From: an uncultured delta proteobacterium
GTDB lineage: Bacteria; Desulfobacterota; Desulfobacteria; Desulfobacterales; B30-G6
Length of the DNA: 64,000 nt
Direction of reading: 5' to 3'
NCBI GenBank assembly: GCA_963701385.1
Contig: CAVOZW010000006.1
Location: forward strand, 143,798 to 207,797
Shown: one piece after another, positions 1,443-43,420 of the stretch
Numbering within the stretch: position 1 is the stretch's first letter
Layout of the letters: every line of letters begins with the position of its first letter
Made by a program: the position numbers and the translations under genes
Notes under the pieces: model-generated
What the model saw: only the letters and a program-made list of their open reading frames with translations
The model's database searches: none
Told to the model about the DNA's origin: nothing

Positions 1443-3523
1443 ATGTTAGACACACTATTTCAGACCCAAATCCGTCGCCGTCATCGGCGCATCCACCAAA
1501 GAACTGTCCATCGGCAATCGTGTCATCCGAAACCTGGTGGATTTTGGTTTCAAGGGACCCATTTTCCCTATCAACCCCAAAGCGGATGAGGTGAGAGGCA
1601 TCAAGGCCTACAAGTCGATACTGGATGCCGCTGACAATATCGACGTGGTCCACATGGTCATTCCAGCCAAATTCGTGCCCATGGCAGTCGAAGACTGCGG
1701 CAAAAAAGGCGTCAAAAACATCATTATCAATTCAGGCGGCTTTTCCGAAATCGGCCCCGAAGGCGCGGTCTATGAAAAAGCCTTTCTCGAGAAGGCCAGG
1801 CAATTCAACATTCGCGTGCTGGGCCCCAACTGCCAGGGAATCATCAATACGGATCCCGAGGTAAGGGCTTACTGTAATTTTACGTTTACCAAACCGGATA
1901 TCGGGCACATCTCTATCGTGGCGCTCAGTGGCGGCGTCGCAGAAGTGATCCACCAGGGATTTTCCGCCATGGGCGTTGGCACACGTATCTATGCCTCAAA
2001 CGGCAATGCCTGTGACATCACGATTCCGGAAATCATTCAATACCTCGGCGATGACGATGGTACGCGGGTTATCGTCACCTATGTCGAAGGGTTGAGGGAT
2101 CCGGCGACTTTCATGAAGGTCGCCCGCGAGGTTGCAGCGAAAAAGCCGATCCTGGCCATGAAGGCCGGCCGAACCAAGCAGGGCGCCAAAGCGGCAGCAT
2201 CTCACACCGGTGGTCTTGCCAAGGAGGATCTTGCAACAGATCTGATTTTCAAAAAGGCGGGCGTACTGACGTTCATGGACGAGGGGGAGTTGATCCAGGC
2301 TGCAGCGGCGTTTGCATCCCAGCCCATACCCAAAGGCAATCGCGTGGGCATCATCACCAATACGGGGGGCCCTGCGGTCATAGCCACCGACATCCTCGTG
2401 GGTGCCGGCGCCGAGATTCCCCCGCTGCCGCAGAAAACGGAAACCCTACTTAAAGGCAGCCTTTTCCCGGAAGCATCCATCAACAACCCGGTGGATGTTC
2501 TGGCCACGGGAAATGCCGCTCATTACCGAACCTGCATGGATGCCATGATGGCAGACGATACCTTCGATGCCCTGTACATTAATTTTGTGACGCCTTTTTT
2601 TGTCGATACGGACAGCATCGCCAAGGAGATTGCCGCGGTCAATCAGCTGGGAATCAAGCCCTTGGTCTGCAATTTAATGACCGACAAACAACAGTGGGTG
2701 ACAACGACCCAAATCCTTATGCAGGCACAGGTTCCGACCTACGCCCTGCCCGGAGAGGCCGCACGCGCCATGACGGCACTGGTGCGCTACCAGGGCATTC
2801 GTTCCCGCGACATCGGAGACCCCAAGGTGTTCGACGACGTTGAAACGGACAAGGTCAGTGACATTCTCACCCGGGCCAAAGAGGCCAAGCGCGCCTTCTT
2901 GCCGGCTGCGGATGTTTACGACATTCTGGGGGCCTATGGCATTCCCACGGCAAAATGGTCCCTGGTGACCACCGCCGAACAAGGCTGTGTCCGCAGCCGA
3001 CGCCCTGGGTTATCCGGTTGTTGTCAAGGCGGACGCCGCTTCCATCGTGCACAAAAGCGACCTGGACGCTGTGGCCCTGAATCTTAAAAATGCCGCTGAC
3101 GTTCAAAAGACCATCAAGGAAATGCGTGCGCGTCTGGAAGCCGACGACCTCGCCTTCCTGGTCCAGAAATATCTTCCCGGGGGATTGGAAGTTATTCTGG
3201 GAGCCAGGGCTGAACCGGGTCTGGGCCATTTGGTCATGTTCGGGATGGGGGGTATCTACGTTGAAGTACTCAAGGATGTGGTGTTCAACCTGACGCCGGT
3301 AACCGCCTTCGAGGCAAACGAAATGCTCGACGCCATTCAGTTGTCCCCTATTCTCAAGGGCGTTCGCGGACAAAAAGGTGTCCATCGAAAGGGCATCATG
3401 GACATCATCCAACGGCTGTCCCAGCTGGTCTCGGACCATCCCACGATCCAGGAACTGGATCTGAACCCCACCCTGGCGTTCCAAGACCGCGTGGTGGTGG
3501 TGGATGGACGAATTAGTATCTAA
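1443..3523 (+). CDS. Acetate/acyl-CoA ligase (ADP-forming), fused alpha-beta; frameshifts near 1460 and 2990
   Basis: ATG 1443 after GGAG; RPKSVAVIGAS, LGPNCQG, AASHTG, NNPVD; ATP-grasp part in ORF 2987..3523 (IVHKSD, VMFGMGG, ELDLNP). Confidence 0.9.
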
Positions 3524-3801
3524 TTTTTAATTTTGAATGTTTAATTTTGAATTACTCAGTTCATAGCTCATAGTCGTAGGTACTGAGGATATGCTGGGAA
3601 GCGAGGATGCTGGGAGCATGAACTGTGAAGCAGCTATGAGCTATCACCTATGAGCTATGAGCTGTTATCAGCATCCCAGCGTCAAGCATCAAAAAAAACC
3701 CAATAAACCCAATGAACTCAACAAACCCAATGAACTCAACGAACCCAACAAACCCAATGAACCCAACAAACCCAATGAACCCAACGAACTCAACAAACCC
3801 T
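3521..3801 (+). repeat. Composite repeat element (TTTTGAA, AGCTCAT/ATGAGCT, GCTGGGAA blocks and AACCCAATG 9-mer array)
   Basis: Core gctgttatcagcatcccagcgtcaagcatc recurs near 15720 and, inverted, near 22690-22730. Confidence 0.85.
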
Positions 3802-3816
3802 AAGAGAGGAAAGCGT

Positions 3817-5367
3817 ATGACCGCCTGGATGAATTTGGGTCAGCAGCTGAAAATGAATGCTTCCAAGTACCCCCATACCATAGCGCTGGCAGACAAAGAC
3901 CGTAAATTCACCTACCCCGAGACCAACCAGCGGGTCAATAAATTGTGTCATAGCCTGCTGTCATTGGGATTAAGCAAGGGTGACAAGGTGGCGGTGTTCA
4001 TGGAAAACTGCATCGAGATCGTGGAAATATTTCTGGCCACAGCCAAAACCGGCCTGGTGATCGTTCCGATCAATTTTCGACTCGTGGGAAGAGAGGTTTC
4101 CTACATCGTCGACAACTCGGATGCAAAAGCCTTCATTGTGCATGACGAGTTCACGCCCATGCTGGATGAGATCAAGGCGGAACTCGAGAATATCGCGCCC
4201 GACAACTATATCGTCGTCGGCGAAGCCCGCGACGGCTATCGGGCCTATGAGTCTTTCATTGAAAAAAGCCCCCATCACGAACCCCAATGCCCTGTGGCAC
4301 CCCAAGACACCTGGATCCTGATTTACACCTCCGGGACAACCGGGAAACCAAAGGGTGTCGTTCGTTCGCACGAATCTCACATTGCCTTTTACCTGATCAA
4401 CGGCATCGACTTCGGATTCAACGAGCACGACGTGTGCTTGAACGTCATGCCTTTGTGTCACATCAACTCGACCTTTTTTACGTTCACGTTCACTTATATC
4501 GGAGCGACGGTCTATATTCATCCGGCGCGTTCGTTCCAACCCGAACAAATTCTCGACATTATCCAGAAACAAAAAATCACCTTTATTTCGCTGATCCCGA
4601 CCCACTACAACCTGATTCTGAATAGTTCGCAAAAAGCCAAAAATTACGATGTCAGCTCCATTCGAAAACTGCTCTGCTCCTCCGCGCCGGTTCATAAAAA
4701 AATGAAACTGGACATCATGGGTTTTTTCCCGGGCGTGCAGCTCTATGAGGGATATGGTTCCACAGAGGCCGGCATCGTCACGGTTCTGAAACCTGAGGAT
4801 CAACTTCGAAAGTTAGGCTCCATCGGAAAAGAGTCCCTGGGAACCGATTTTATCAAGCTCCTTGATGAAGACGGTCAGGACGTCGCCCCTGGTGAGGTGG
4901 GCGAATTGTATTCCCGGGGGCCCATGCTGTTTGACGAATATTACAAATTACCCGATAAAACAGCACAAGCCTTTCAGGGAGAATGGTTCAGCGCCGGTGA
5001 CATGGCCCGCAAAGATGAAGACGGCTTTTACCAGATCGTCGACAGAAAGGACAACCTGATCATCACCGGGGGAGAAAATGTCTATCCCAGTGAAATCGAA
5101 GAAGTTGTTGGTAGCAACGATTGCGTGTTCGACTGTGCCGTTATCGGCATACCGGATGACAAATGGGGCGAAAAAGTCGTCGCTGTGGTCATTCCCAAGG
5201 GTAACGAGACGGTCGAAATTACCGAAAAAATGATCGCGGATTGCTGCAAACAACAGATGGCGGGTTACAAACGACCCAAAGAAATCCTGTTCATAAAGGA
5301 AGAAGACATGCCGCGTACGCCCACGGGGAAGATCCTGCACAGGAAATTGCGGGAGAAATTTAAATAA
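3817..5367 (+). CDS. AMP-dependent acyl-CoA synthetase / long-chain fatty acid-CoA ligase
   Basis: YTSGTTGKPKG, YGSTE, GD, IITGGENVYP, TGKI motifs; RBS GAGAGGA before ATG 3817. Confidence 0.92.
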   Translation: MTAWMNLGQQLKMNASKYPHTIALADKDRKFTYPETNQRVNKLCHSLLSLGLSKGDKVAVFMENCIEIVEIFLATAKTGLVIVPINFRLVGREVSYIVDNSDAKAFIVHDEFTPMLDEIKAELENIAPDNYIVVGEARDGYRAYESFIEKSPHHEPQCPVAPQDTWILIYTSGTTGKPKGVVRSHESHIAFYLINGIDFGFNEHDVCLNVMPLCHINSTFFTFTFTYIGATVYIHPARSFQPEQILDIIQKQKITFISLIPTHYNLILNSSQKAKNYDVSSIRKLLCSSAPVHKKMKLDIMGFFPGVQLYEGYGSTEAGIVTVLKPEDQLRKLGSIGKESLGTDFIKLLDEDGQDVAPGEVGELYSRGPMLFDEYYKLPDKTAQAFQGEWFSAGDMARKDEDGFYQIVDRKDNLIITGGENVYPSEIEEVVGSNDCVFDCAVIGIPDDKWGEKVVAVVIPKGNETVEITEKMIADCCKQQMAGYKRPKEILFIKEEDMPRTPTGKILHRKLREKFK

Positions 5368-5390
5368 ATTTGAAATAGATTTTAGGTGTC

Positions 5391-5790
5391 AGACTATTAG
5401 ACTATTAGGCTGTTAGAGATAGAATTGCGAAATCACAAAAACTTAGGGCATTTGAACTTGCGGACGAAATCGCGCTGATTACCTATCGAATGACAAAGGA
5501 TTTTCCAAGAAGAGGTCTATGGTTTGTTCCCAAATGAGAGAGCGCGGTATCGATTCCTCAAACATCGTGAAGGTGTGCCGTGAAAGTCAGGTTGAATACT
5601 TCGTTTTCTGGAAATTGCTTTAGTTCCTAAGGGAGTTACATTATCAATTCGTTGGCCCAACGTTTGGGGTATGTGGACTCGATTGATTCAGAATGTCGAC
5701 TAAAATTGTGGAGACCGAAAAAGTCTTAGCTGCGCTGCTGAGATCTATGCGCAAAACCTAACAGTCTAATAGCCTAACAGCCTAACAACC
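5391..5790. mobile_element. Inverted GACTATTA/GGCTGTTA 8-mer repeat element enclosing a four-helix-bundle gene
   Basis: Left arm agactattagactattaggctgttag; right arm ctaacagtctaatagcctaacagcctaac; mobility is inferred, not shown. Confidence 0.65.
5425..5761 (+). pseudogene. Four-helix-bundle protein (23S rRNA IVS protein / Avd-like family), many single-base deletions; absent from the ORF track
   Basis: Reconstructs across frameshifts as MRNHKKLRAFELADEIALITYRMTKDFPKEEVYGLxSQMRRAAVSIPSNIVEGCARESQVEYxRFLEIAFSSLRELHYQ..LAQRLGY..ETEKVLAALLRSMRKT. Confidence 0.85.
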
Positions 5791-5861
5791 TCTTAAACAG
5801 CTGTACATAAATTACCATAATTAACAAATTAACTACAATATTATCTAAGGAGGAGATCACA

Positions 5862-7053
5862 ATGCTTAACAAAAGCCTTTATCCCCTACGGCGGCTACTA
5901 CAGCTCACCTTTTTGCCGCTGGCAAGGAAGCATGCAGAACGAAAATTCTATTGAACTTGGCGCTGAAACGTCTAAGCGGTGGCTTGCCGAAAAAGGATTT
6001 GATGCCGGTATGTTCGACTATCTTTTTCTCGGTATCACCATCAGTCAGATCCATCAGTTCTACGCAGCGCCCTGGGCCGCCGCCTTGATGGGGGCCGGTC
6101 ATATACCGGGGTTCACTTTGAGTCAGGCCTGCACCACCGGAACCACCTGTGTCTTTCAGGCCGCCGTTGGGGTGGAAACAGGGCTTTACCAAAATGCTTA
6201 CGTCCTGACCACGGACCGCACCTCCAACGGACCGCATACGATTTGGCCCAACCCCAAGGGACCCGGTGGTGAGGTCATTTCGGAAAACTGGCTCATGGAC
6301 AACTTCAACGCCGACCCCAATGTGGGTCTTCGAATGGTAGAAACTGCGGAAAATGTCGCCAAGGAAGAAGGTATCACAAAGGAGGCCTGTGATGCCGCGG
6401 CTTTGAAACGTTACCAACAATATCTCATGGCACTGGAAAACGAACGCGCGTTTCAGAAAAAATACATGTTTTCTGCCGAAATCAAGCTGTCCAAAAAAAA
6501 GAGCATCCTTGTCGAAGAAGACGAAGGCATTACACCTGCTACCGCTGAAGGCCTGGCCGGTCTCAGACCCTTGATACCCGGCGGTGTTCTCAGTTTTGGG
6601 GCTCAAACCCATCCAGCGGATGGCAACGCGAGCATGATTGTCACCACCAAAGAAAAGGCCCAAGCGTTGAGTGCCGATCCTTCCATGCCGATTCAAGTTC
6701 TGGCCTATGGTTTTGCCAGGGAGAAAAAAGGTTACATGGCCGCGGCGCCGGTTCCGGCAACCAAAATGGCCTTGGCCAATGCAGGACTCACTATCGGCGA
6801 CATGAAGGTCATCAAATCACACAACCCGTTTATCGTGAATGACCTCAATTTCGCCAAACAGTTCAATATCGATGTCAATGAGATGAACAATTATGGCTGT
6901 TCCATGATCTACGGCCATCCCCAGGGCTCCACGGCAACGCGTCTGATAATTGAAGGCATCGAAGAAACCGTCATGAAGGGCGGCGGTTATTTTCTCTGGA
7001 CCGGCTGCGCGGCGGGTGATAGCGGGGCGTCACTGATACTCAAAATCGGATAA
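5862..7053 (+). CDS. Thiolase family protein (frameshift near 5875)
   Basis: AGGAGG RBS; QACTTG, THPADG, GHPQG, GCAAGD motifs. Confidence 0.88.
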
Positions 7054-8313: not shown

Positions 8314-8528
8314 TCGTTTAAAGCAACAGGACAATTGCTACCACCCCCGTACTCGAAGTCAAGCAAGGGCAGATCCGTTTAAGCGCTGGAATTCATCATC
8401 ATATTATGATAGCTTCCCTTGTATAAATGGCTAACATCCTTTTGACCATGTTTCCAGCATTCCAGTGTTCCATTATTCCACCTTCAATTTGTGCAGGAAC
8501 CTGTTATCGATTTGCGAAAGGTCGCATA

Positions 8529-9600
8529 ATGGAACCAACGCGTTTAAAAAACATCCATGCCCCCCTGCTCACATGGTATGATCAAAATCATCGCAATCTG
8601 CCCTGGAGAGAAACGAGCGATCCTTACGCCATATGGGTTTCGGAAGTGATGCTCCAGCAGACCCAGGTCAAAACGGTTGTCCCTTATTACGGGCGTTTTC
8701 TAACCAGATTCCCAACCATTCAGGATCTGGCCGCTTCGGATCTTCAGGCCGTGCTGAAGGCATGGGAAGGTCTGGGATATTACGGCCGCGCGCGCAATCT
8801 GCATCGTTCGGCCAAAATCATCTTGACGGAGCATCAGGGCGTATTTCCTGACACATGGAAGCCTGTCCGCCGACTACCGGGTATCGGTGATTATATCGCC
8901 GCTGCCGTTCTGAGCATCGCCTTTAACGGCCCCTATGCGGTTGTGGATGGAAATGTCAAGCGCGTGCTGGCACGGCTCTTGAAAATCGACACTCCGGTGA
9001 ATCAGGCATCCGCCGGCAACACGTTTAAAAAAAATGCCGATGCTTTGCTCTACAAGCATGATCCGGGCAAATACAACCAGGCCACTGATGGAACTGGGTG
9101 CCCTGATCTGTGCACCCGCTTCTCCTCTGTGCGGCACTTGCCCGATTCAGTCGGCATGTAAGGCCTACCAATCATCCAGCGTCGACATCTACCCCAAACG
9201 CGTTAAATCCAAACAGACGCCTTTGTACAATATCGCTATCGGTGTTGTTTTGAAACACAACAAGCTGCTCATTACACAGCGCCGGGCTGATGGCCTCTTG
9301 GGCGGGTTGTGGGAATTCCCGGGTGGCAAAATACAACCCGGGGAAACATCTGCGGCAGCTTGTATTCGTGAAATCAAGGAGGAGACCGGTTTGAAGGTGT
9401 CGATTTCTCAATACTTGACCCAGGTCAAGCATGCCTACACCCACTTCAAAATTGTCGTGGATGTGTTCGTTTGTGACCATGTTTCTGGTACGGTGACCCT
9501 GGACGGCCCGGTGGACCACCAGTGGATTACACTGGAACAAATTGACGACTTATCCGTTTCCCAAAGCGAATCATAAGTTTATTCCGCACCTCAGGGAGGC
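8529..9600 (+). CDS. mutY: A/G-specific adenine glycosylase with C-terminal NUDIX domain (frameshifts near 9085 and 9550; end approximate)
   Basis: WVSEVMLQQTQV, WEGLGYY, LPGIG, VDGNVKRV, MELGALIC..P.C..CP...C, LWEFPGG, FPKAN. Confidence 0.95.
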
Positions 9601-12071: not shown

Positions 12072-12986
12072 ATGCCGATTTCCAGGTTCGAATTTCATTC
12101 GCCAAAACGCTTGGATGAGGCTGTGGCCCTGTTGCAAGCAAAGGGCAGCGACACCTTTGTCATGGCCGGGGGCACCGACCTGCTGATCAAGCGAAGGCAC
12201 CAGATCATTCATCCCAAGACCATCGTCAGTCTAAAAAAAATCAATGGCTTGAACCGTATCTCATTTAGCCGCAGTAAGGGTCTCACCATCGGTGCCACGG
12301 CGCTGTTGGGAGACGTGGCCAGACATTCGAGCATTCTGAAATTTTACCCTGCCATTGCCAAAGCGGCCAACAATACAGCCAATGTTCAAATCAGAAACAT
12401 GGGCACCGTGGTGGGAAATCTCTGCAATGCGTCCCCTGCGGCTGATAATGCCCCTGCGCTTCTGGCACTGAATGCCGTGTTGAACATTGTGGGCCCCCAG
12501 GGCGAACGGGTTCTTGCCCTGGAGAATTTCTTTCTGGGACCCGGCGTTACAGCGCTTCAATCCGCAGAGGTCGTTGCATCCGTCTTGGTACCGCTGCCGC
12601 CGCCTGGATCAGGCACCACCTACCTGCATTTGTCCGCCCGGGGACGGGTCGACTGCTCCGCCGCCAGCACAGGCGTTTTTCTGGCCCTCAAAGGCGCCCG
12701 GGTTGAACAGGCCCGCATATTTATCGGCGCCTGTGGCCCCACGCCCCTGAGAATGCCCAAAGCTGAAAAGCGACTGATCGGTCAAAAAGTCACCCAAACG
12801 ACAGCCGAACAGACCGGCATCCAGGCGTCAAAAGAATCCCGACCCATCTCGGATGTGCGGGCCAATGAAGATTACCGTTTACAAATGGTGGCGGTCCTGG
12901 TCAAGCGGGCCGTACTGGAGGCGTATCAATCAGCTCATAGCTCAACGGTTCCAGACAGGCTATTGGGCTGTAGGCTGTTAGACTGA
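12072..12986 (+). CDS. Xanthine dehydrogenase family FAD subunit (CoxM-like)
   Basis: AGGTDL, IRNMGTVVGNLCNASPAAD, PISDVRA..YR. Confidence 0.92.
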   Translation: MPISRFEFHSPKRLDEAVALLQAKGSDTFVMAGGTDLLIKRRHQIIHPKTIVSLKKINGLNRISFSRSKGLTIGATALLGDVARHSSILKFYPAIAKAANNTANVQIRNMGTVVGNLCNASPAADNAPALLALNAVLNIVGPQGERVLALENFFLGPGVTALQSAEVVASVLVPLPPPGSGTTYLHLSARGRVDCSAASTGVFLALKGARVEQARIFIGACGPTPLRMPKAEKRLIGQKVTQTTAEQTGIQASKESRPISDVRANEDYRLQMVAVLVKRAVLEAYQSAHSSTVPDRLLGCRLLD

Positions 12987-13130
12987 GACTGTTAGGCGAT
13001 AGATCTACAGCTGTAGAACTTATAGGCTGTTAGACTGTTAGGCTGTAGGGTAGCAGCTAATATCTAAAGTCTAACAGTCTAATTGTCTACATAGTCTGAA
13101 ACTCAAATAGTCAATAGTCTAAGTCTAATC
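12957..13130. repeat. Empty, degenerate GGCTGTTA/CTAACAGT inverted element
   Basis: ggctgttagactg arms followed by gtctaacagtctaa arms. Confidence 0.75.
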
Positions 13131-13205
13131 GTGCACAGCCTATGTCACTGTGATAAAATACAGACAATTGAATATACCGATAAAACACGAAATAAAGGAT
13201 CCCCC

Positions 13206-15480: not shown

Positions 15481-15795
15481 CAATAATTTTTAATTCTCAA
15501 TTTTGAATTTTGAATTATATAGCTCATAGCTCATAGGTGATAGGTGAATAGGATTGCTGGGAAGCCAGGATGCAATAATCTATGAATTCTCAATTCTTAA
15601 TTTTGAATTATACAGCTCATAGCTCATAGGTCATAGGTGATAGGATTGCTGGGAAGTCTATGATGCTAGGAGGCTAGGAAGCTGGGAAGCAGCTATGAGC
15701 TATCAGCTATGACCTATGAGCTATTATCAACATCCCAGCGTCAAGCATCAGAAAAAAACCCAACAAACCCAATGAACCAACAAACCCAACAACCC
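15481..15795 (+). repeat. Composite repeat element, copy 2, with a duplicated left part
   Basis: Same block order and core as 3521..3801. Confidence 0.85.
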
Positions 15796-15804
15796 AGTGT
15801 TCCC

Positions 15805-16766: not shown

Positions 16767-16958
16767 GACAGGATTAACAGGATTTTACAGGATTTATTTT
16801 ATTCATTCATCATGCAATTTTTTTCAAAGCACAAATTCTCTTTTATCTTTTACAATAAGTTCAATTCGAAAGATAAGGTATTTCGCCGCAGGCGATAGTT
16901 GGTTTTACGCTTTCGTCAGGAAAGCGTAAAAGATCCTGTCAATCCTGTTAATCCTGTC
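16767..16958. repeat. GACAGGATT...AATCCTGTC 9-mer inverted element
   Basis: gacaggattaacaggattttacagg ... atcctgtcaatcctgttaatcctgtc, with internal tcgccgcaggcga hairpin. Confidence 0.85.
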
Positions 16959-17005
16959 TAATAAAAAATATTCTTGAAGACAGTCATCAGCAAGCAACAA
17001 ACCCA

Positions 17006-17506
17006 ATGAACCCAACAAACCCAACAAACCCAATCACAGGCTACGTTCCCGGCGCCATCGGCCGCATCACCGAGCTTCACGGCAGGTATTACAGCCAAGC
17101 GTGGGGATTTGGAGCGTTTTTCGAGACCAAGGTCGCCACCGAGCTGTCCGCGTTTGTGAATCGATTCGATGATCAAAGGGATGGCCTCTGGACTGCCTGC
17201 TCGAACAACCGGGTGCAGGGCGCCATTGTCATCGATGGCATCAATGCCGATTCAGAGGGAGCACACTTGCGGTGGTACATCGTTTCGAATACACTGCACG
17301 GGCAAGGCATCGGCAACCGGCTGCTATCTGCGGCCATGGACTTCTGCCGGGCACGGCGCTATCGGCAGGTGTTTCTGTGGACCTTCAAGGGCCTCGAGGC
17401 CGCCAGGTATTTGTACGAAAAAAATGGATTCACGCTAGCGCATGAACAAAAAGGTTCGCAATGGGGCACACCGGTCACCGAACAGAAGTATGTGTGTGTC
17501 CTTTAA
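17006..17506 (+). CDS. GNAT family N-acetyltransferase
   Basis: HLRWYIV..HGQGIGNRLL, LWTF..L.AAR.LYEK.GF. Confidence 0.9.
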   Translation: MNPTNPTNPITGYVPGAIGRITELHGRYYSQAWGFGAFFETKVATELSAFVNRFDDQRDGLWTACSNNRVQGAIVIDGINADSEGAHLRWYIVSNTLHGQGIGNRLLSAAMDFCRARRYRQVFLWTFKGLEAARYLYEKNGFTLAHEQKGSQWGTPVTEQKYVCVL

Positions 17507-19117: not shown

Positions 19118-19168
19118 ACCCGTTGTATTCTACGACAAGCGCTATATTTGATAGTATCGGAGAAGATA

Positions 19169-21251
19169 ATGTCCAATTCGATAGAATGGAAAAAAACCCA
19201 CTGTGCCAGAATGGACCATGGGGGATGTGCCCTGCTGGTGGGTGTCAAGAACAACCGCATCGTCAAAGTCAAAGGTGATCCGGACGGCTTTTTAAACAAG
19301 GGCTACATCTGCCCCAAAGCCATCGCCTCCCCCGATCGTCTCAATCATCCTGCGCGTCTCAAATCACCTTTAAAACGTGTGGGCGGCCGCGGTCAGGGAC
19401 GCTGGGAAAAAATTTCGTGGCCGGATGCCATCCATGAAGTGGCCGCCAACCTGAACCGGGCCAGAGAATCACATGGTGCCCGCAGTGTGGCCTTCTGCCA
19501 GGGAATGCCCAAGGGACTCGAACACTTTGTTCTCATACGGCTGGCCAATCTTTTTGGTTCTCCCAACCTGGTCGCCACGCAGGACGTCTGTCATGCACCC
19601 CGGGAGATCAGTGGTATCCACACCTGTGGCTTTTATCCTGTTGCTGATTTTCATCATCCAAGCAAGCTGGTCATCCTCTGGGGAAGCAATGTCACGGACA
19701 CCAACGAGGAGGGTGAAATTTGCAGCCTGCTGCTTGAGCAGATCAAGCAAGGTACCCAACTGATCGTCGTTGATCCCAGAAAGACCGCCCTGGCCAAAAA
19801 AGCCAAACACTGGCTGCAGATCAAACCCGGAACAGACGCTGCACTGGCGCTTTCGTTTCTGAATGTGATCATCCACGAGCAGCGACATAACCAAGATTTT
19901 GTTGCCGAATGGACGCACGGATTTGATGAACTGGCCGCGCATGTCAAGACCTTTGCCCCTGAAAAAATGGCTGACATAACGGGTATCCCATCCAAAAAAA
20001 TCCGGGCCGCCGCCGTCGATTATGCGGCACTTCATCCAGCCGCCATTCAGTGGGGAAACCCCATCGAACAGACCGTCCACACCTTCGATGCGACCCGGGC
20101 ACTGGTCTGTCTCATGGCCATTTGCGGCAATCTCGATATCCCCGGCGGCAATGTTCATGCCCAGGACCCGGATCTTCTCGGTTTGGGCGAGTTCGTTCGC
20201 GCAGACAAGATTCCGTCCAAAAGAAAAGAGATGATCCACGCCCATCATCACACCATACCGCAGACTCATGACCGTCCCACCGGCATTTTTTCGCCAAGCA
20301 GTCCTGACGGAGGTACCCTATCCGCTAAAGGCAGCCTATTTCCAGTGTACCAACCCCTTGCTGACTTACGCGGACAGCCGCATGACCTTCGCGGCCCTAA
20401 TGAAACTGGATTTTGTGGTGGTGGCCGACCTTTTTATGACGCCCACGGCCTGTCTGGCCGATATTGTCCTGCCGGTGGCAAGCCAGTTCGAATTCGACGA
20501 CATCGGCCATTACGGTATCGGGCACGGATACATATTGGCACGTCCCAAAATTGTCGATCCACCGGCATCCTGCTGGCCGGACATCCAGATACTCAATGAA
20601 CTCGGAAAAGCGCTCACACCTGAAGAATACTGGTATCCGACCGCGCACGGTCTTGTGGCGTCGGTGCTCTCCCCTTCTGGCTTGACCTACGCTCAGTTTG
20701 CAGAAAAGGGCTACCTGAAGGGGCCGGATCGATTTCGCAAATATCGCACCGATGGGTTCAAAACCCCGAGCGGAAAAGTGGAACTCATGTTGACACGCGC
20801 CGATCGATACGGCGTGAACGCTTTGCCCGACCACAAGCAGGACCCCCAAGACAAGGATCCGTCATACCCTTTGATATTAACGAGCGCCAAGGACCGATAC
20901 TATCTGCACTCTTCCTACCGTTGGGTGGACAAGCTGAGAAATTCGAGCCCCAGGCCGATGGTCGAACTTCATCCCGAAACTGCCGCCGCCTATGGGATCG
21001 AACACGACGACGTGGTGATCATCGAGACCCGCAACGGTTCCATCACCCAATTTGCCAAGATCGCGGATACCATCATGCCCGGGGTGCTGAACGCCGCTTA
21101 TGGGTGGTGGTTCCCGGAATCATCGGCCAAAGAACAGTTCGACTGGCAGCGCTCAAATTTCAACATGCTGACCACAACCGATCGTCTGGGGAAGGAATTC
21201 GGGACGCCCAATCTCAAGGGAATCAACTGCCGTATTCGCAAAAAAAAATGA
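19169..21251 (+). CDS. Mo/W-bisPGD oxidoreductase, acetylene-hydratase-like (frameshift near 20265)
   Basis: N-terminal Fe-S region (C...GGC..GYICPK), RLKSPLKR, IKPGTDAALAL, TPTACLADIVLP, GFKTPSGKVEL, HSS. Confidence 0.85.
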
Positions 21252-21326
21252 TTTCTCTGTAAGGAAATAACAAACTTTTTCATCACGAAAACGCGAAAGT
21301 ATTTAACGGTTCCAAGGAGCAATGAC

Positions 21327-22603
21327 ATGACCGATGATCTCTTGGGAAAAGCAAAACGCTATCGCTGGTACATTTTCTGGATACTCGCACTTGGATATGT
21401 TCTGGTCTATTTCCATCGGCTCTGCCCTGCGGTCGTGGCGGTGGATATGATGAAGGATCTCAATACGACGGGCGCTTTGACCGGTTTTTTGGGGGCGGCC
21501 TATTTCTACCCTTACGCGGCCATGCAATTGCCGGCCGGGCTCCTGTCAGACTCCTGGGGACCCCGCAACACCATCACCCTCTTTTTTGTCGTCGCATTTA
21601 TCGGATCCGTCATTCTCGGTCTGGCACCATCCGTCTCCCTGGCCATCTTTGGACGGACCTTGGTGGGGCTTGGCGTTGCCATGCTTTTTGTACCGACCAT
21701 GAAAATTCTGGCAGAATGGTTCCATATCAAAGAATTCGCCACCATGACCGGTATTCTCATGGCTCTGGGAGGCGTGGGCAGCCTGATCGCCGCCACACCT
21801 CTGGTTTGGGTCAGCAATTGGATCGGCTGGCGGCAATCTTTTATTCTCGTGGGCATTGTTACACTGGTCCTGGCAATACTGGTGTACCTGATTGTCAGGG
21901 ATCGGCCGGCCATGATGGGATGGCCCTCGCCTGCCGGAACACCCAAGACCCCCCCCCCAGCCCATCCCACTCATGGCAGGTGTCAAAAAAGTCCTGACCA
22001 CTCCCTTTTTCTGGCCGGTGGCGGTCTGGTTTTTCTTTGACTGCGCCATCTTTTTTTCGTTCGGTGGCCTCTGGGGTGGTCCGTATCTTATGCAGGTCTA
22101 CGGCTACACCAAAGCCCAATCAGGGCATATTCTCTCAATGCTGGCCGTAGGCATGATCATCGGCAGCCCCCTTTTGAGCTACTTTTCGAACAGCGTGGTC
22201 AAATCGAGAAAGATTGTCGTGATGATCGCCAGCACAATTGTCTTGTGCCTGGTCATACCACTGGCCTTCTTTACGGCGGCGATCCCCCTCCTTGGGCATT
22301 ACATCATCTGCCTGGGGCTGGGAATGTTTTCCAGCGCCATTGTCGTTATCGGATTCACCACCAACAAGGAACTCTTTCCGGTCCAAATGGCCGGAACCGC
22401 CACAGGCATGATCAATTTGTTCCCCTTTTCAGGGGGCGCCGTGTTTCAGCCGGTTCTGGGTTATGTGCTGGAGAAACAAGGCCGTATAGAAGGCGCCTTC
22501 ACCCTCGAAGGCTACCAGCAGGCATTTCTGGTTTTGTTTGCCTGCAGCTGTCATTGCCTTGATCGCCAGTTTTTTCTTTAAAGAAACACTGCAAAAAGAT
22601 TGA
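21327..22603 (+). CDS. MFS transporter (frameshifts at the poly-C near 21955 and near 22545)
   Basis: QLPAGLLSDSWGPR motif A; multiple hydrophobic helices. Confidence 0.9.
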
Positions 22604-23058: not shown

Positions 23059-23508
23059 ATGAAACTCAAACAAATCACCATTTCCATTGAAAACGAACCC
23101 GGTCGACTTCTGGAAGTGACGCAGGCACTCGGCAATGCCGGTATCAATCTCAGGGCACTCAACCTGGTGGACACCGGCGCCTTTGGACAGCTGCGGCTGA
23201 TTGTTTCCGATGTCAGAAAAACCCGTCATATCCTGATGGGCCTGCAAGCGGCAGCCCATGTCGAGGAAGTGGTTGCTGCGGAGATCGAGGACAAATCCGG
23301 CAGCCTGGCATCCATATTGAAGCCACTCCACGCGGCGAACATCCATATCGTTTACATGTATGCCTTCATCGGCTTGTCGTCCGACAAGGCGGTCATGATC
23401 TTCAAGTTCAGCAACAACGATAAGGCGATCGAGCTGCTTCAAAAGATTGGTGTTCGCATACTGGACGCCAAAGCCTTCGGCATCCTGGAGTCGGGGAATA
23501 ATCATTAG
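23059..23508 (+). CDS. Tandem ACT-domain protein
   Basis: QITISIENEPGRL..L.NAGINLRAL, INIxYMYAF-type second ACT domain; GGAGG RBS. Confidence 0.88.
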   Translation: MKLKQITISIENEPGRLLEVTQALGNAGINLRALNLVDTGAFGQLRLIVSDVRKTRHILMGLQAAAHVEEVVAAEIEDKSGSLASILKPLHAANIHIVYMYAFIGLSSDKAVMIFKFSNNDKAIELLQKIGVRILDAKAFGILESGNNH

Positions 23509-23595
23509 GCTGTTAGGCTGTAGACTAGTAGACTATTAGGCGCCTACAGCCTAACAGTCTAATAGTCTACAGCCTAATGGTCTACAGCCTAAATA
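23506..23595. repeat. Empty GGCTGTTA/CTACAGC inverted element forming a single hairpin
   Basis: taggctgttaggctgtagactagtagactattagg-cg-cctacagcctaacagtctaatagtctacagccta; starts on the TAG stop of the ACT gene. Confidence 0.88.
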
Positions 23596-23623
23596 CCTAT
23601 TTTTTTATTTTGAAGGTTAAAAT

Positions 23624-26279: not shown

Positions 26280-27104
26280 ATGAAAAATACAGATTCAAAT
26301 CCGGAAATTTTTTTCCAAAAACTCAACGTTGAGTTTCTCGTTCACGAGCTCAAGGACCCCATTGCGGTGATCGAAACCGGTGCGCGCACCCTGATCGAAA
26401 AACAGGCTACATTCGGATCACTGTCACCCCGGCAGGAAAAGACCATGAATCGGATCATTCGGAATGCCCGCAAGGCACGCGAAATGCTTTACAGCCTGTT
26501 GGAGGTGGGGCGCTCCGAAGCAGGCAGTTTTGCCTGCAATTCCTTCAACCCCGTCGAAACGGCTTTCGATGTGCTGGCAAATTGTCTGGAAATGCAAGAT
26601 CCGTTGATTGGCGAGAAAATGCACCCACAGCAGGACATGGTCCAAGCACTGGCGCATCTTCATTCATCAGGCATTTCTTTGTCTTTTGTGCCGGATCTGT
26701 ATCAGATGGTGATACATCAGGATCAGGTCAAGTATCGTCAAATTATCGGAAATTTAATAAAAAATGCCCTGCATTTCCGGCGGGAACGTATCGACATCAC
26801 GATGGATAAAGACAACGATTTCCTGTTGGTGGCGGTGATAGACGATGGCCCCGGTGTTGAGCCTGAGCATTGCGAGTCCATATTTGAACGCTATTCTCAA
26901 GCAAATGAATGCACCATCAGCACGCGTCAAGGGCATGGTTTGGGTTTGGCCGGCGCCCGCATTATGGCACGCTGCCTGGGGGGTGATATTGACCTGACAT
27001 GCAGCAAAACAGAAGGAACCAAATTTCAGTTGCGGCTACCGATGGATCGGGTGAACGGAGTAATTCTTAATTTTGAATGTTTAGTTTTTGCTGAGAAGCG
27101 TTGA
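26280..27104 (+). CDS. Histidine kinase without a sensor domain
   Basis: VHELKDP, NLIKNA, DDGPG, GHGLGL. Confidence 0.9.
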   Translation: MKNTDSNPEIFFQKLNVEFLVHELKDPIAVIETGARTLIEKQATFGSLSPRQEKTMNRIIRNARKAREMLYSLLEVGRSEAGSFACNSFNPVETAFDVLANCLEMQDPLIGEKMHPQQDMVQALAHLHSSGISLSFVPDLYQMVIHQDQVKYRQIIGNLIKNALHFRRERIDITMDKDNDFLLVAVIDDGPGVEPEHCESIFERYSQANECTISTRQGHGLGLAGARIMARCLGGDIDLTCSKTEGTKFQLRLPMDRVNGVILNFECLVFAEKR

Positions 27105-27229
27105 TTAAAATCTCTGCAAAATGCAAACATCTTGGATCTCTTGAACCCTTGGATCCTGGAACCCTTTCTCCCAACTGATTGGGAGAAGAGCCGTATAATT
27201 CTTATCAATCTTATCGTGGGGGAGTAATA

Positions 27230-29120: not shown

Positions 29121-29390
29121 GACAGGATTAACCCGGTCCGATTTTCCGAACCTACCGGGCAGGCAGGATTTTACAGGATATTATTATTCTTTATCACTTT
29201 CCAGATGAAAGTGATAAAACCAAATCCGCTTCGCGGAAAACACCTCATGATCAGAGATTATCTGCCAAGCACCTATTTACCCAATATTATTTTCAAAGCA
29301 TGCAAATAGTTTTTCGCCGAAGGCGATGGAAATTTTGTGATTTCTTCTGGGAATCACAAAAAAAATCCTGTCAATCCTGTCAATCCTGTC
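29121..29390. repeat. GACAGGATT...AATCCTGTC element
   Basis: First about 150 bp nearly identical to 32968 onward. Confidence 0.88.
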
Positions 29391-29487
29391 AAATATTTTC
29401 CTCTCATACCTATCAGCTACGACCTATGACCTATGACCTATCAGCTGCTATATAATTAAAAATTAAAAATTCATAATTGCCACAGGC

Positions 29488-30831: not shown

Positions 30832-31010
30832 TTATCTCCTTGTATTTGTTCAATTAGTTCATCTTCATACGTTTATCCCTCGGCGATATTCGATGGTTAA
30901 GCATATCACTCGAATCCTGGACCCCTGGAACCCTCGGATCCTTTAGATAATCTTTTCAAGATGATCCGAATTAATAACTCAAAATTAAAAATTAAAAATT
31001 CGCATTCGCC

Positions 31011-32967: not shown

Positions 32968-33235
32968 GACAGGATTAACCCGGTCCGATTTTCCGAACCT
33001 ACCGGGCAAGCAGGATTTTATTATTCTTTATCACTTTCCAGATGAAAGTAATAAAACCAAATCCGCTTCGCGGAAAACACTTCATGATCAGAGATTATCT
33101 GCCAATCCTGTTAATCCTATTAGACTCGAACATGTAGTTTTCAACGCGCTGTAAATCGTATTTTTCAGCGAACGCAATAGTCATGCCTGAAATTTCGACT
33201 GAAACTTAACTCCGGTCAATCCTGTTAATCCTGTC
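32968..33235. repeat. GACAGGATT...AATCCTGTC element
   Basis: Matches the 29121 copy; right end matches about 28115-28150. Confidence 0.88.
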
Positions 33236-38495: not shown

Positions 38496-41400
38496 ACAAA
38501 GCAGCCGCTGCTGCCCGAGCCTTCAGGTGTTGTGCCGGCAGGTGGCACAAGGGGTGGATCGATCGGCAATTCGATGTTGCTTGTGCCGGAATCCAGTTGG
38601 AAGGTGTATTCCGGCGATGGGTTTTGATCATCCTCAACGATGTCATGGCTGTTTCCGGAGGCATCCACCGAAGCGACTCCGGACGAAATACGGTACATCC
38701 ATCTCGATGTTGGTGAGTATCACGCGGTGCTCGCGGGTCAGTTCAGAATTGTTTTCGCTGTAGTCATAGTCCCCCCATTCCTGGCTGGAGGTGCCATAGC
38801 TTACCTGGCTGTTTCCGGGCTCGCTGGTCTCCCATTCAAGCAGCACGGCTTTTTCAGCTTCATCCAATTCGATGCTGACCTGGGAAATCTGGGGCGCGTC
38901 CTGATCCGGTGACGTGTCGGTGGTAAAGGAAAGTTCTTCGAATGGGTTGGCCGTGTCTACGTCGGAAAAGGGACCATTTCCGTGGGCATCGGTGGATGCC
39001 ACACGATAAAAATAGCTTGTTTCCGGTTGCAGGCCCGTAATCGTCACATGATGTGTGGTCGTCATTTCGGAATCGTTGGCACAGTGTGCATAGTCGCCCC
39101 AGGCCTGGCTGGAGACATCGAACTGCACCAGGCTGTTGCCGGGCTCATCCGTTTCCCAATAGATAAGGGCGGTTGAGTCGGTCAGGTGCATGATTTCGAC
39201 GTTCAAGATGACCGGGGGCGCTTCATCCGCCACAGCGCTTGTCAGGAAATGATCTACGACTGGACGGGTTGTTGGCAGTATCGTTTACACCGGGACCGTT
39301 TCCAGCCACATCCATGGAACCCACAACAAAGGCATAACGCGTGCTTGGCTAAGAGCCCTGAAAGGGTAACCAGGTGTGTTTTTACCATGGCCATGTCTTG
39401 AATACTGTGCGTAAATGCGCCCCATTCGGCATCGGCCAGGCCATACTGCACCTCGCTGGTGCTGGGTTCATCCGTCTCCCACACGATAACCGCTGTCGCA
39501 TTGTCGATATTGAGCACCTGGGGATTGTCGATTATTCTGGGCGGCGTATCATCGGGTGGCAGTGCGGCTATAAAACTTTGCTCGGCAAAGGGGTTGTTGG
39601 TCTCTGCAGGATCGGAACTGGGGCCATTGCCGAAGGCGTCGGTGGATCCAACCCGAAAATAGTAGCGCTGGCCTTGCAGGAGATCTGTCAAAATAACCGT
39701 TTGATTTTTCGATAATTCATCGCTCATACTGACGTGGGTGTATTGGTCCCATGTGCTACTGAATCTTCCGTATCGCACCTCGCCGATGCTGGCCTCGTCG
39801 GTTTTCCAGGCGATGGCGACGGAGATCGTATCCGCTTCGTTGGCCGCCAAGGCCCTGATAGCGCTGTCGAGGGTCCCGGGTTGGTCGGGGGGGCTGGGCA
39901 CAAACATCAAGACGACCGTCGGCGGCGAGGTGGTGGTGGGCTCCGCCTCATCCGGCATCGGTTCTGTATTGAAAGCCTGCTCCGCTGAAATCGCTGGGCC
40001 GTTGGCCACACTGTCCCAGGAGCCCACCCGGAAAAAGTAGGCTGTATCCGGAGTCAAATCCGTCAATGTCACGACATGCCGGATGGCCAACTGGGTGTCG
40101 TTTGCCGCGTATGAATAGATGTCCCAATCGCCCGCTACGGTGTCGAATTGCACCTGGCTGTCACTGACCTCATGGGTGGACCACTCGATGGTGGCGGTGG
40201 TGTCGCTTTGATCGGTCACGGTGGGCCATGCATATGAACTGCGGGGGCGACGTGTCGATACCCGACAGGGTTGTAAAACGATACTCATCTGATATCACTT
40301 GGTTTCCAGATGTGTCGGTAGCGGCAAAGCGGTAAAAATATTCCGTGTCTGCGATGAGACCCGTCAGTACCAAGGTGTGCGTCGTCACAAACGCATCGCT
40401 GCTTTGATGCAGGCTATAATTGTCCCAACTGCTGCTGTAGATGTCATAGCGGACGTCGCTGTCACTTTCTTCATTCGTTGTCCACTGAATCACGGCACTG
40501 TTTTGGGTAATATGTGATTTGCTGGACGACATAATACCTGGCGGCGTTGTGTCGGTCTCCGGTGGTGGCGGCGTTACCGGCGCCGGATTTGTCGTAAAGG
40601 AAAACTCACCCGATATCACGGCATTTCCGGCCGCATCGCTGGATCTGACCTGACAAAAATAGGTCGTATCCGCTGACAACCCGGTGATCGTCATACTGTG
40701 GTTGGTCACCAGGCTGGTGGCAACTTGTTGGCTGGCATAGTCGCTCCAGGCGCTGCTGTCCGACATCATAGCGGATCTCGCTGTCGCTAACTTCGTTGGT
40801 GCGCCAATATACGTGGCGGAATTGGATTCGATCGCCGTTGCCGAAGGCAGGATCGTCAATATCCGGCGCCGTGGTGTCTTGTTCCGGGGGCGGTGGGCTG
40901 TCGGGTGCCTCATCGGTGGTAAAGATAACCTCATCCGAGGTCACGGCATTTCCGGCCGCATCCCGTGATCTGACGCTGTAATAATAGGTCGTGCCCGGCG
41001 ACAAACCGGTGAGGGTCATGCTGTGGTTGGTTACCAGGCTTCCGGCCGTTTGTCGGTTGGCATAGGCACTCCAGGTGTTGCTGCTGACATCATAGCGGAT
41101 CTCGCTGTCGCTGACTTCGTTGGTGCGCCAATAAATGGTGGCACTATCGACGTCGACATGGCTTGCTGAAGGCTGGACCGTAAACTGCGGCGCCGTGGTG
41201 TCAGGATCCTTGAGGGTGGTAAAATAACGTTCATTGAACGTCACCGTATTGCCGGCGGCATCGCTTGAGCGCACCCGGTAATAGTAGGTCGTATTCGACA
41301 ACAGACCGGTCAAGGCAATGCTGTGGTTCTTGACAAAACTCGAAGACGTTTTTGTGTGCTCATAACTTCCCCAGGTGGTGCTATTGACACCATATTGCAC

Positions 41401-42835
41401 GACACTGTCACTATTTTCATTCGTTGTCCACTGAATCACGGCCCCGCTTTGGGTAATATTGATTGACACTGTACGAGGTGATCACCGGTGCGGTGGTGTC
41501 CGGCGGCGGGGGCGGTGGTGTCTCATCCGTGCTAAACGAAAACTCACCCGAGGTCACGGCATTTCCGGCCGCATCGCTGGACCGGACCCGAAAATAATAG
41601 GTCGTACCCGCTGACAGGCTGCTTAGGGCAATGCTGTGGCTGGTGACAAGACTTGCGGACGTTTTTGTGTTGCTGTAATTTCCCCAGCTCGTGCTGGTGA
41701 CACCGTACTGCACCACACTGTCGCTGGCTTCGTCCGTTCGCCAGGTGATGCTGGCGCTGGTTTCACCCACACTGCCTGCCGCGGGCGGGACCGTGATCAC
41801 CGGTGCGGTGGTGTCCGGCGGCGGGGGCGGTGGTGTCTCATCCGTGGTCAACGAAAACTCACCCGAGGTCACGGCATTTCCGGCCGCATCGCTGGACCTG
41901 ACCCGAAAATAATAGGTCGTACCCGCTGACAGGCTGCTTAGGGCAATGCTGTGGTTGGTGACAAGACTCGCAGACGTTTTTGTGTTGCCGTAATTTCCCC
42001 AGCTGGTGCTGTTGACACCGTATTGCACCACACTGTCGCTGGCTTCGTCTGTTCGCCACGGTGATGGTGGCGCTGAGTTTCACCCACACTGCCTGCCGCA
42101 GGCGGGACCGTGATCACCGGTGCGGTGGTGTCCGGCGGCGGGGGCGGTGGTGTCTCATCCGTGGTAAACGAAAACTCACCCGAGGTCACGGCATTTCCGG
42201 CCGCATCGCTGGACCGGACCCGATAATAATAGGTCGTACCCGCTGACAGGCTGCTTAGGGCAATGCTGTGGTTGGTGACAAGACTTGCGGACGTTTTTGT
42301 GTTGCCGTAATTTCCCCAGCTGGCACTGTTGACACCGTACTGCACGACACTGTCGCTGGCTTCGTCCGTTCGCCAGGTGATGCTGGCACTGGTTTCACCC
42401 ACACTGCCTGCCGCAGGCGGGACCGTGATCACCGGTGCGGTGGTGTCCGGCGCTGGCGGCGGGGGCGGGACAGGCGCATCACCCGTGGTAATTTCTACTG
42501 AATCGTCACTTTCATTACCCTGGTTGTCCACGGCGGTGCACACAAAAAAATAGTCTTGATCTTGGATTGATATCGGGGATGCTGATGGTCCACTGCGGGT
42601 TGCTAGGATCGGATAGACTGTCGACAGGGATGTGTTTTCTGGCCGATGCGCTGAAATTACCGGACGACGTGCTCCAATAAATCCGGTATGCAACCACTTG
42701 GTCGTTGGGATGATTCGCATCCCATTTGAAGCTGTAGTCGGCGGAGAAAGCAAATGGCACCAGTCCGAATAAAATGAATACAAGCCATACCGAACGTAGT
42801 GGCTAGACTTAAATAGCGTATAAATAGCGTGTCAT
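38474..42835 (-). CDS. Large secreted FN3 / purple-acid-phosphatase-N-like repeat protein (about 12 repeats) with CF tail; multiple frameshifts, start approximate
   Basis: Repeated I.W.TDE.S.S.V.YG...W..Y...H...L..L...T.YY.RV.S.DA.GN across ORFs 41938, 41417, 40606, 40170, 39254, 38643; ends GSSGCFVQLIGDS. Confidence 0.85.
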
Positions 42836-43420
42836 TGCATTTCCAATAATATCATATGGGTTTAACGTAAGGAGATAACAGAAATCACAATCCAATCGTT
42901 CATCTCGTAAAGAGTCGAACTTACGTGCAGGAGTGCCAGCATAACTCTTTCAGATGACAACGTTAGATGGCCGTTTCATCATCAACACGAATGAACGATT
43001 GGCTTTAGGGGGTGTTGCGACTCGAAAATAATTTTTCCCTTATTAACGATATTTTTAACCGTTGTGTCAATGGAATAATCCCTCTATTCCATAAAAAAAG
43101 CCCTGTCTTGAATCGACAGAGCTTTATATTTATATTTCTAACTATATTTATAGCTTATCTTATTATTTCAATCCGTTTTATTAAAGAAAAATCAACACTT
43201 CAAATCTGCTATCTCCTTAATATTGCTTCGTTTCCAAAATATCAATTTTCCAAAGAACGTCCCCACCAATAATGAAGATGATTTCACCGGGGTTAAACCT
43301 GCCTCCATCAGCTATGAACTGTTGTGAACTCAAAATTAAAAATTTAAAATTCAAAATTGAATATCACTCCGGCTTCCTACCACCTATCACGCTATCAGCT
43401 ATCAGCTATCAGCTATCAGC

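Follow-up and report, generated by a model that had tools for sequence, protein, structure and literature searches.

What is the small gene that sits between two inverted arrays of eight-nucleotide repeats in an operon spacer, and how did it come to be there? The question is raised by positions 5387-5791 of a 64,000-nucleotide stretch of DNA from an uncultured delta proteobacterium of the Desulfobacterales, the whole of which we call the window; the genome of the window is designated G000, and those compared with it G001, G003, G005 and so on. The initial annotation took the segment for a four-helix-bundle gene packaged in a cassette whose repeat stems define an excisable, invertible or RNA-processed unit. 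In our judgement it is probably the dead, immobile relic of a small non-autonomous DNA transposon, that is, a mobile insertion cassette resembling MITEs (miniature inverted-repeat transposable elements). The intact members of its family have transposon ends, target duplications, bursts in copy number and a series of internal deletions.

The locus is composed of the following features.

5387-5417, plus strand: left arm, about 3.4 tandem 8-mers of the AGACTATT / AGGCTGTT type
5425-5761, plus strand: pseudogene of the PF05635 family (23S rRNA intervening-sequence protein, a four-helix bundle), as delimited by DNA alignment to the intact G001 ortholog
5757-5791, plus strand: right arm, about 4.4 tandem 8-mers, complementary to the left arm
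3712-5367, plus strand: AMP-binding acyl-CoA ligase gene, the upstream host gene, co-oriented with the pseudogene
5932-7053, plus strand: thiolase gene, the downstream host gene, co-oriented with the pseudogene

The inverted 8-mer arms were recovered as first described. A repeat finder paired 5387-5416 with 5758-5787 (30 nt, 83% complementary, spacing 341 nt), and Tandem Repeats Finder (TRF) reported period 8 with 3.4 copies at 5391-5417 and 4.4 copies at 5757-5791. Just before the left arm, AGGTG is a remnant of the inner left terminus of the family to which this copy belongs, here called family B (intact ends read GTAACTACTCAGGTGGATAG...), and the right arm closes with CAACCT, left over from the inner right terminus (intact copies have CCTAAACAACCTGAGTAGTTAC). 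The ancestral TTG start of the gene lies at 5425 and its ancestral TAA stop at 5759-5761, inside the first unit of the right arm, as had been noticed and as is the case in G001, G003 and G012.

The gene itself has decayed. The longest plus-strand open reading frame (ORF) between the arms has 34 aa, stops occur in all three frames, and the copy was missed both by a PF05635 scan of G000 (25 matches), where it did not reach the Pfam cut-off, and by tblastn queried with nine copies from the same genome (57 loci). Only the DNA alignment to the G001 ortholog reveals what it is; arm to arm, the alignment to this intact 121-codon gene needs 11 gaps, nine of them not a multiple of three, and the conserved RxxxSxxxNxxE stretch is broken by gaps. 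The homology to four-helix-bundle genes was correctly recognised, but the gene is not intact, and by this alignment 5425-5761 is a pseudogene. Other ORFs of the window are split between overlapping frames, and single indels could therefore be assembly errors; about nine frameshifting gaps in some 340 nt are far above this background and are not explained in that way. Four genes appear split, an ADP-forming acyl-CoA synthetase-like gene (1450-3084 with 2987-3523), a MutY-like gene with HhH-GPD and NUDIX domains (8427-9158 with 9001-9573), a molybdopterin oxidoreductase gene (19118-20596 with 20235-21248) and a major facilitator superfamily transporter gene (21252-22037 with 21916-22578), and they represent either real frameshifts or assembly indel errors.

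An intact counterpart is found in G001, a relative within the genus, which carries a 121-aa PF05635 gene between the same arms in the same ligase-thiolase spacer (L027:2647-3009; E = 7.7e-32, 110.1 bits against a cut-off of 33.8). Its product is related in sequence to the PDB entries 2GSC (E = 3.5e-25) and 2RLD (E = 2.6e-5). The stretch RRAAVSIPSNIVEG occurs in the ORFs of G001, G003, G012 and G117 and corresponds to RxxxSxxxNxxE, a part of the motif published for the PF05635 family (PMC3936711), and N, G and E are nearly invariant in the protein alignment of PF05635 copies. In G003 and in G012, the latter of another genus, an intact 121-aa ORF with the same arm family lies between ABC permease and ATPase genes, a locus at which G000 holds a gutted relic, and G007 has a partial copy at a third site; the cassette thus occupies different loci. 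Over six pairs of intact copies dN/dS was 0.056-0.103 (dS 0.47-2.7), and the cassette protein is under strong purifying selection.

Among close relatives the ligase-thiolase spacer exists in several states. That of G005 contains this cassette minus about 156 nt lost by internal deletion, with no target duplication recognisable, and that of G002 has a left arm followed by the contig end. No cassette copy is present at this spacer in the other five: G008 has instead a hairpin of GAACATC heptamers around some 170 nt of other cargo, G006 has a GAACATC array only, and G004, G007 and G009 have no such element. In a tree built from ligase plus thiolase, the filled G005 is the sister of G006, which has no copy (support 100/100), and the six-genome clade that includes all filled and several unfilled states is otherwise unresolved. 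Because filled and unfilled states are mixed among relatives, the spacer has turned over repeatedly and is neither fixed nor the product of a single gain; the comparison of this interval proposed in the initial annotation thus finds it polymorphic. The window copy would date from an insertion into the spacer in a forebear shared by some members of the genus, followed by decay. In favour of such a relic, it aligns arm to arm with the intact cassette of G001 and the deleted one of G005 in the same spacer, and with those of G003 and G012 at the other locus.

Could a small gene have come to lie between two arrays by chance? The genome is rich in repeats, TRF giving 1699 rows of period 20 or less for G000 and, with periods up to 500, 103 for the window, and many hairpins have no gene. 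Nevertheless, we find a coincidence hardly credible. The PF05635 copies of G000 that were examined are mostly bracketed by inverted short tandem arrays whose unit varies by lineage (AAGGATTC-type 8-mers, GGAGTCR 7-mers, TCGATA 6-mers, AGCTACC 7-mers and GAATATC 7-mers); a tandem PF05635 gene pair on G000 C21 has no bracketing arrays. Scored as the local complementarity between the two flanks, bracketing reached 14 or more in 14 of 17 near-full G000 copies (about seven independent lineages, paralogs being among the 17) and in 5 of 3000 random placements. A second set, drawn from many phyla, comprised the best 80 loci of a search with a five-sequence alignment, one genome per species, with proteins 40-76% identical to the query and hosts in KSB1, Ignavibacteria, Brocadiaceae, Bacteroidales, Nitrospira, Akkermansia, Dehalococcoidia, Planctomycetota and others. 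Among the 75 of these best 80 loci that had enough flank, 53 scored at least 12 (10 of 657 shifted controls) and 33 at least 18 (2 of 657). These controls refute coincidence, and the same cassette with the same arms recurs in other genomes and phyla. Gene and arms form one cassette, as had been suggested.

How is such a cassette built, and how does it move? Intact members consist of an outer terminal inverted repeat, a tandem array of 7-8-nt units, the ORF, the inverted array and the other outer terminal inverted repeat. The ORF starts just behind the left array and stops in or near the right one, and the whole is flanked by an 8-bp duplication of an A/T-rich target.

In family B, the outer ends of well-kept copies read GTAACTACTCAGGT[GA]GATAG ... 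ACCTGAGTAGTTAC. Scanning metagenomes with the 20-nt left end gave at least 120 stretches, with 80 loci listed. Among the matches listed there are 81 left ends. Of these, 33 have a right-end partner at a distance of 81-614 nt, and 19 of the 33 paired copies, against none of 1056 control pairs, show an 8-bp duplication. The four longest copies among the matches listed (439-614 nt) show homology to four-helix-bundle genes; in several shorter ones the ends and arms are left together with stubs from the start and end of the ORF, and the shortest two, of 81 and 98 nt, consist of ends plus arms only. A graded series from filled to arms-only thus exists in family B, produced by transposition and internal deletion. 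A 14-nt version of the end was found in 39 of 301 genomes of the class and in 14 of the 15 genomes of one family, with up to 180 matches in a single genome (G341), against scattered single matches only for the reversed control pattern; neither G000 nor G001 has a match to it. Intact genes of the family B clade were looked for in five burst genomes, and G341 and G263 have two each and G292 a partial one.

The second family, family A, is that of G000 itself, and two pieces of it fall within the window.

G000 C17:316443-316929, 487 nt: family A reference copy
Window 27095-27193, plus strand: family A right-hand fragment with ORF tail, right arm and right terminal repeat (...TTGGGAGAAGAGCC), between histidine kinase and response regulator genes
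Window 30905-30968, minus strand: family A solo left end

Coverage of the reference amounts to about 75 copies at the left end and about 60 at the right, with 5-9 across the middle, and the 44 paired copies measure 173-540 nt, most commonly 303 nt. The ends are imperfect inverted repeats (left GGATCATCTCC..., right, on the reverse strand, GGCTCTTCTCC...) situated about 30 nt outside the arms. Among complete copies, 25 of 35 have an A/T-rich target duplicated over 8 bp on their two sides, whereas mismatched flank pairs show this in 16 of 1190 cases. Several copies of this family are broken at the same point of the mini-hairpin at the right end, and the element may be a preferred insertion target.

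Since the terminal repeats and the 8-bp duplications lie outside the arms, these data argue for transposition and not for excision or inversion at the stems, and the notion that the tandem-repeat stems themselves define the mobile unit has to be abandoned. An integron-like or invertible system, in which a recombinase encoded elsewhere excises, inverts and inserts cassettes at the stems and the hairpins of the window are empty sites, is in our view very unlikely. Besides the position of the ends, the arms differ between cassette lineages, and hence offer no common recombination site. As had been reported, neither a recombinase nor a reverse transcriptase is present among the 54 window ORFs scanned (E <= 1e-5). 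The case for such a system comes from hairpins of family B 8-mers that have no cargo, of which the window contains two.

23506-23595, no strand assigned: arms-only hairpin of family B 8-mers, starting on the TAG of ORF 23059-23508
12957-13130, no strand assigned: composite imperfect hairpin of family B 8-mers, between FAD and MoCo (molybdenum cofactor) subunit genes

Both had been described correctly, and both are strong structures. The fold of 23495-23605 has -53.7 kcal/mol (z = -8.87) and that of 12945-13145 has -75.4 kcal/mol (z = -5.35), with none of 200 shuffles equally good in either case. The right end of the first, CCTAAATACCT, matches the inner right terminus of family B and is followed by a T-run. 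Their flanking genes are co-oriented (an ACT-like ORF with a PAS/GAF kinase for the first, the FAD and MoCo subunits of a xanthine-dehydrogenase-type enzyme for the second), so that, as noted at the outset, all three features of the window sit between co-oriented genes. Neither hairpin has recognisable outer terminal repeats or target duplications, and no four-helix-bundle gene was found in 11 orthologous spacers of relatives, seven for one locus and four for the other (best tblastn E 0.43); in relatives the orthologous spacers of both hold other short-repeat hairpins. At that of the hairpin at 23506, stretches of family B 8-mers adjoin such hairpins in G002, G005 and G008, and the latter may be nested between the 8-mer stretches, which speaks for the integron-like or invertible system.

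Nothing indicates that the cargo-less hairpins of the window once held the gene, and they may be decayed arms-only miniatures. The idea of filled and empty states survives for the graded series of family B and finds no support in these hairpins. Tabulating cargo against arms has a similarly divided outcome: arms are associated with PF05635 genes, but among 74 pairs of array and inverted array in G000, 16 (17 with the window copy) enclose detectable four-helix-bundle sequence and 57 do not. The family B 8-mer is rare in the order: of 201 genomes, 7 match its strict pattern (G000 at 31 places, G001 at 29), and the clade protein (at least 63% identity) is represented across these 201 genomes by 13 full-length copies and one partial copy; the arm units are too divergent between lineages for a clean 2x2 test of the one against the other.

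Other repeat-armed hairpins were encountered as well. In G008, hairpins with arms of GAACATC heptamers (in the ligase-thiolase spacer, L031 ~1116-1621, and at C6:184867-185287) enclose about 170-270 nt of cargo without four-helix-bundle homology and give the impression of a second type of element with repeat arms in this genus; six short GAACATC hairpins, with gaps of 34-78 nt, occur in G000. Inverted arrays of the 9-mers ACAGGATTA / ATCCTGTCA, 140-230 nt apart, occur in the window at 16768-16958, 29164-29392 and 33104-33234 and elsewhere in G000 at C2:7991-8316 and C6:136453, and may constitute a further family of this sort.

Direct traces of excision, inversion or circles were not seen in metagenome contigs of four runs on the window, where the pieces are short, the element is poorly covered and the joints are ambiguous. 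Contig joints 5416->5757 (X2, X6) have 26 letters on the shorter side, and an opposite-strand joint occurs in one contig; the joints 5416->5757 probably stem from arms-only hairpins of other loci or organisms.

Which enzyme would move the cassettes? No element contains a transposase and many copies are internally deleted, and a DDE transposase supplied in trans would be the mover. For family A it would be an ISL3-like enzyme, a guess made because its end starts GGCTCTTC (the right end, on the reverse strand, reads GGCTCTTCTCCC) and its duplication measures 8 bp. In Microcystis, ISL3 elements share with a 187-nt MITE both an end that starts GGCTCTTCG and direct repeats of 8 nt, and a 23S rRNA gene harbours one copy of the MITE, according to the available portion of that account (PMC11448079).

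Several observations weigh against our reading of the window copy as a transposon relic. No transposase with matching ends was found, and the ISL3 transposase family (PF01610) gave no match in G000, which is 95.3% complete. The only long elements between family A ends in G000 contain nested insertions. In two of them (C18:122054-124161 and C1:246219-248122) there is a 432-aa ORF resembling an IS110-family transposase; in the other two (C9:319232-321575 and C11:69635-72151) there is an ORF of 433-449 aa that has a YADD motif and resembles the reverse transcriptase of a group II intron. The 12 ORFs chosen behind 48 unpaired family B ends among the matches listed were all ordinary host genes, and the family B end, GTAACTAC..., does not start with GG, unlike ISL3 ends. 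Two burst genomes, G270 and G260, have many ends and no intact gene of the family B clade. The counts given here over paralogs and kin are not independent. Finally, neither an intact outer terminal repeat nor a target duplication is recognisable at the window copy, and for this reason its membership of the family rests on the homology of arms, ORF and inner termini.

There remains the question of what the arms and the protein do. One possibility, suggested by analogy with the intervening sequences (IVSs) of rRNA, is that the main role of the arrays is to fold a read-through transcript of the host operon into a stem around the ORF, which RNase III would cut as in a 23S IVS. Insertions in transcribed spacers, tRNA clusters and rRNA would thereby be rendered harmless, and the ORF message would be released or regulated. 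This role, which is compatible with transposition as DNA, we regard as possible though somewhat doubtful. It would account for the ORF start region and stop lying at the inner edges of the arms and for the AGCTACC-armed G000 copy placed between two tRNA genes, and the build matches that of the ORF-bearing Coxiella IVS in the part of its description at hand (PMC4990558). Cassettes lie mostly in short spacers and share the orientation of their flanking genes; with the latter called as long open frames, 40 of 71 loci are co-oriented with both neighbours and 7 opposed to both, the figures for family A being 19 and 2 of 41, which fits expression from, and tolerance within, host transcripts. Ordinary genes, however, are co-oriented with their neighbours about as often. 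The two arms of the window copy do pair with each other in the RNA fold of 5375-5805, but this 431-nt fold is no better than shuffles (z = -0.90, 19 of 100 equally good). In 72 arm pairs, mismatches compatible with G.U pairing were 130 in the sense and 134 in the antisense strand, and without a sense-strand excess nothing singles out RNA. Moreover, the unit is conserved across phyla whereas synonymous sites have reached saturation (dS 1.3-2.7), and pairing alone needs no such conservation.

That conservation points to sequence-specific recognition. Where the protein shares 63% identity or more with the query, the unit AGRCTR/YAGYCT (at least two AGRCTR upstream plus at least two YAGYCT downstream) was found at 17 of 28 loci, and at none of 47 others (0/9 at 55-62%, 0/38 below 55%); the repeat unit thus varies with the protein clade. 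Unit and ORF clade stay together even under different outer ends: a metagenome element, L181, has family B outer ends, yet GAGTCAG-type arms and a 'DLVVWQ'-type ORF start, and the same pairing of arm and ORF occurs at G000 C11:156402. Since the unit is held across phyla and accompanies the ORF clade despite different outer ends, recognition would be most simply by the encoded protein. The chance that the arrays are cognate recognition sites of this protein we put just short of even; that they are a mere by-product seems rather improbable. On balance, cognate protein binding ranks slightly above processing of an RNA stem, and the two are not exclusive.

A fuller version of this proposal holds that the arrays bind an oligomer of the encoded four-helix bundle, which would serve the element as its factor for end pairing, for control of transposition or for control of the message. 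Subterminal repeats bound by element-encoded proteins are known from Tn7, Mu and En/Spm. Consistent with such a factor, the protein is under strong purifying selection and is the only ORF of the longest elements, and 30 of the 33 paired family B copies among the matches listed keep the family unit on both sides. The arrays have about 3-5 units, the solved relatives 2GSC and 2RLD were each deposited with five chains, and the Xanthomonas protein is described as a homopentamer in the accessible part of the source (PMC4990558). On the other hand, the co-variation of unit and clade would follow equally from co-inheritance of neighbouring DNA, which is a sufficient alternative, miniatures could have kept their arms because hairpins guided where the deletions ended, and the burst genomes G270 and G260 lack an intact clade gene. 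We entertain this version tentatively and think it somewhat unlikely. The same tentative weight is given to a broader mechanism, in which the inverted arrays of an element, whether as DNA ends or in the form of an RNA stem, would be bound by the oligomer that the element encodes, so that a cassette of about 450 bp could be moved or processed by borrowed enzymes of the host or of insertion sequences; arms-only hairpins and the so far unexplained hepta- or octanucleotide tandem repeats dispersed over many bacterial genomes would be its non-autonomous progeny, and the rRNA IVSs would belong to the same class of transposon. As for the window relic, it is most likely inert at its locus beyond placing an imperfect 30-bp hairpin in the operon transcript.

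The cassettes resemble several known systems without coinciding with any of them. Mobile insertion cassettes (MICs), or passenger-carrying MITEs, have terminal inverted repeats and target duplications around a passenger gene, contain no transposase and are mobilised in trans. The elements of families A and B share the ends, the duplications and the absence of a transposase; unlike in MICs, the passenger always belongs to one small protein family and always lies in its own, putatively cognate, inverted tandem arrays, whichever the outer ends. They differ from integron cassettes in that the window has no recombinase and the arm sequences vary between cassette lineages.

The helix-45 IVS of Coxiella burnetii has a 28-bp terminal stem and tandem heptamers before its S23p ORF and was cleaved by RNase III in an in vitro assay, as far as the consulted portion of that report goes (PMC4990558). 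Our cassette and this IVS share a PF05635 protein, an ORF in the loop of a stem of terminal inverted repeats, tandem repeats of heptamer type before the start, a sense orientation in the host transcript and a proneness to decay. The window element differs in lying in the intercistronic spacer of a protein-coding operon, between ligase and thiolase genes, and not in a 23S rRNA helix, and in the window Rfam, at gathering thresholds, detected no RNA family. Outer terminal repeats, 8-bp duplications and bursts of miniatures are seen in members of the cassette families and do not appear in the sections of the Coxiella account available to us (PMC4990558). With the ISL3-derived MITE of Microcystis our elements have in common a non-autonomous stem-loop, 8-nt direct repeats and, in the right end of family A, the start GGCTCTTC(G). 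That MITE has two tiny putative ORFs only (21 and 11 aa), and the excerpted description makes no mention of tandem-repeat arms (PMC11448079); family B, in addition, has a different end (GTAACTACTCAGGT), and G000 has no detected ISL3 transposase. A homologous four-helix bundle is also found in Avd, the accessory protein of diversity-generating retroelements (DGRs), in the part of the literature source at hand (PMC10053308). Unlike a DGR, the window lacks reverse transcriptase, template repeat and variable repeat alike, and the context is that of a transposon-like cassette; the group II intron-like reverse transcriptases elsewhere in G000 are the nested insertions in family A copies.

Some further repeats of the window lie apart from these elements. 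At 3696-3800, where the ligase reading frame has its 5' end, lies a 9-nt / 27-nt tandem repeat of the AAACCCAAC type (about 11.7 copies), translated as MNSTNPMNSTNPTNP..., and the gene probably starts in reality downstream of it; the same 9-mer recurs at 15756-15796 and 16995-17033. A 315-nt tandem repeat (41478-42452, 3.1 copies, 95% identity) lies within very large minus-strand ORFs, which extend over 38646-49039 and are built of fn3 / purple-acid-phosphatase-N-like domains.

The origin of ORF-bearing rRNA intervening sequences and the role of their four-helix-bundle protein have been open since the early 1990s. The window locus is one decayed instance of a PF05635 cassette architecture whose transposon nature outside rRNA has no description in the literature searched (mostly non-subscription, with most subscription journals outside the search), where we likewise found no account of PF05635 genes outside rRNA as bracketed by arrays. 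Most occurrences of the same gene-in-hairpin unit lie outside rRNA; transposon ends with 8-bp target duplications bound it, and it spreads between phyla, leaving gutted and arms-only copies behind. For annotation, this explains the small 'four helix bundle protein' genes that turn up inside operons to which they bear no relation, cas operons among them (PMC3936711). A share of the short tandem-repeat hairpins so abundant between the genes of certain bacteria could have originated in this way, and the protein, its putative cognate repeat array and the outer ends together make up a concrete, testable system.

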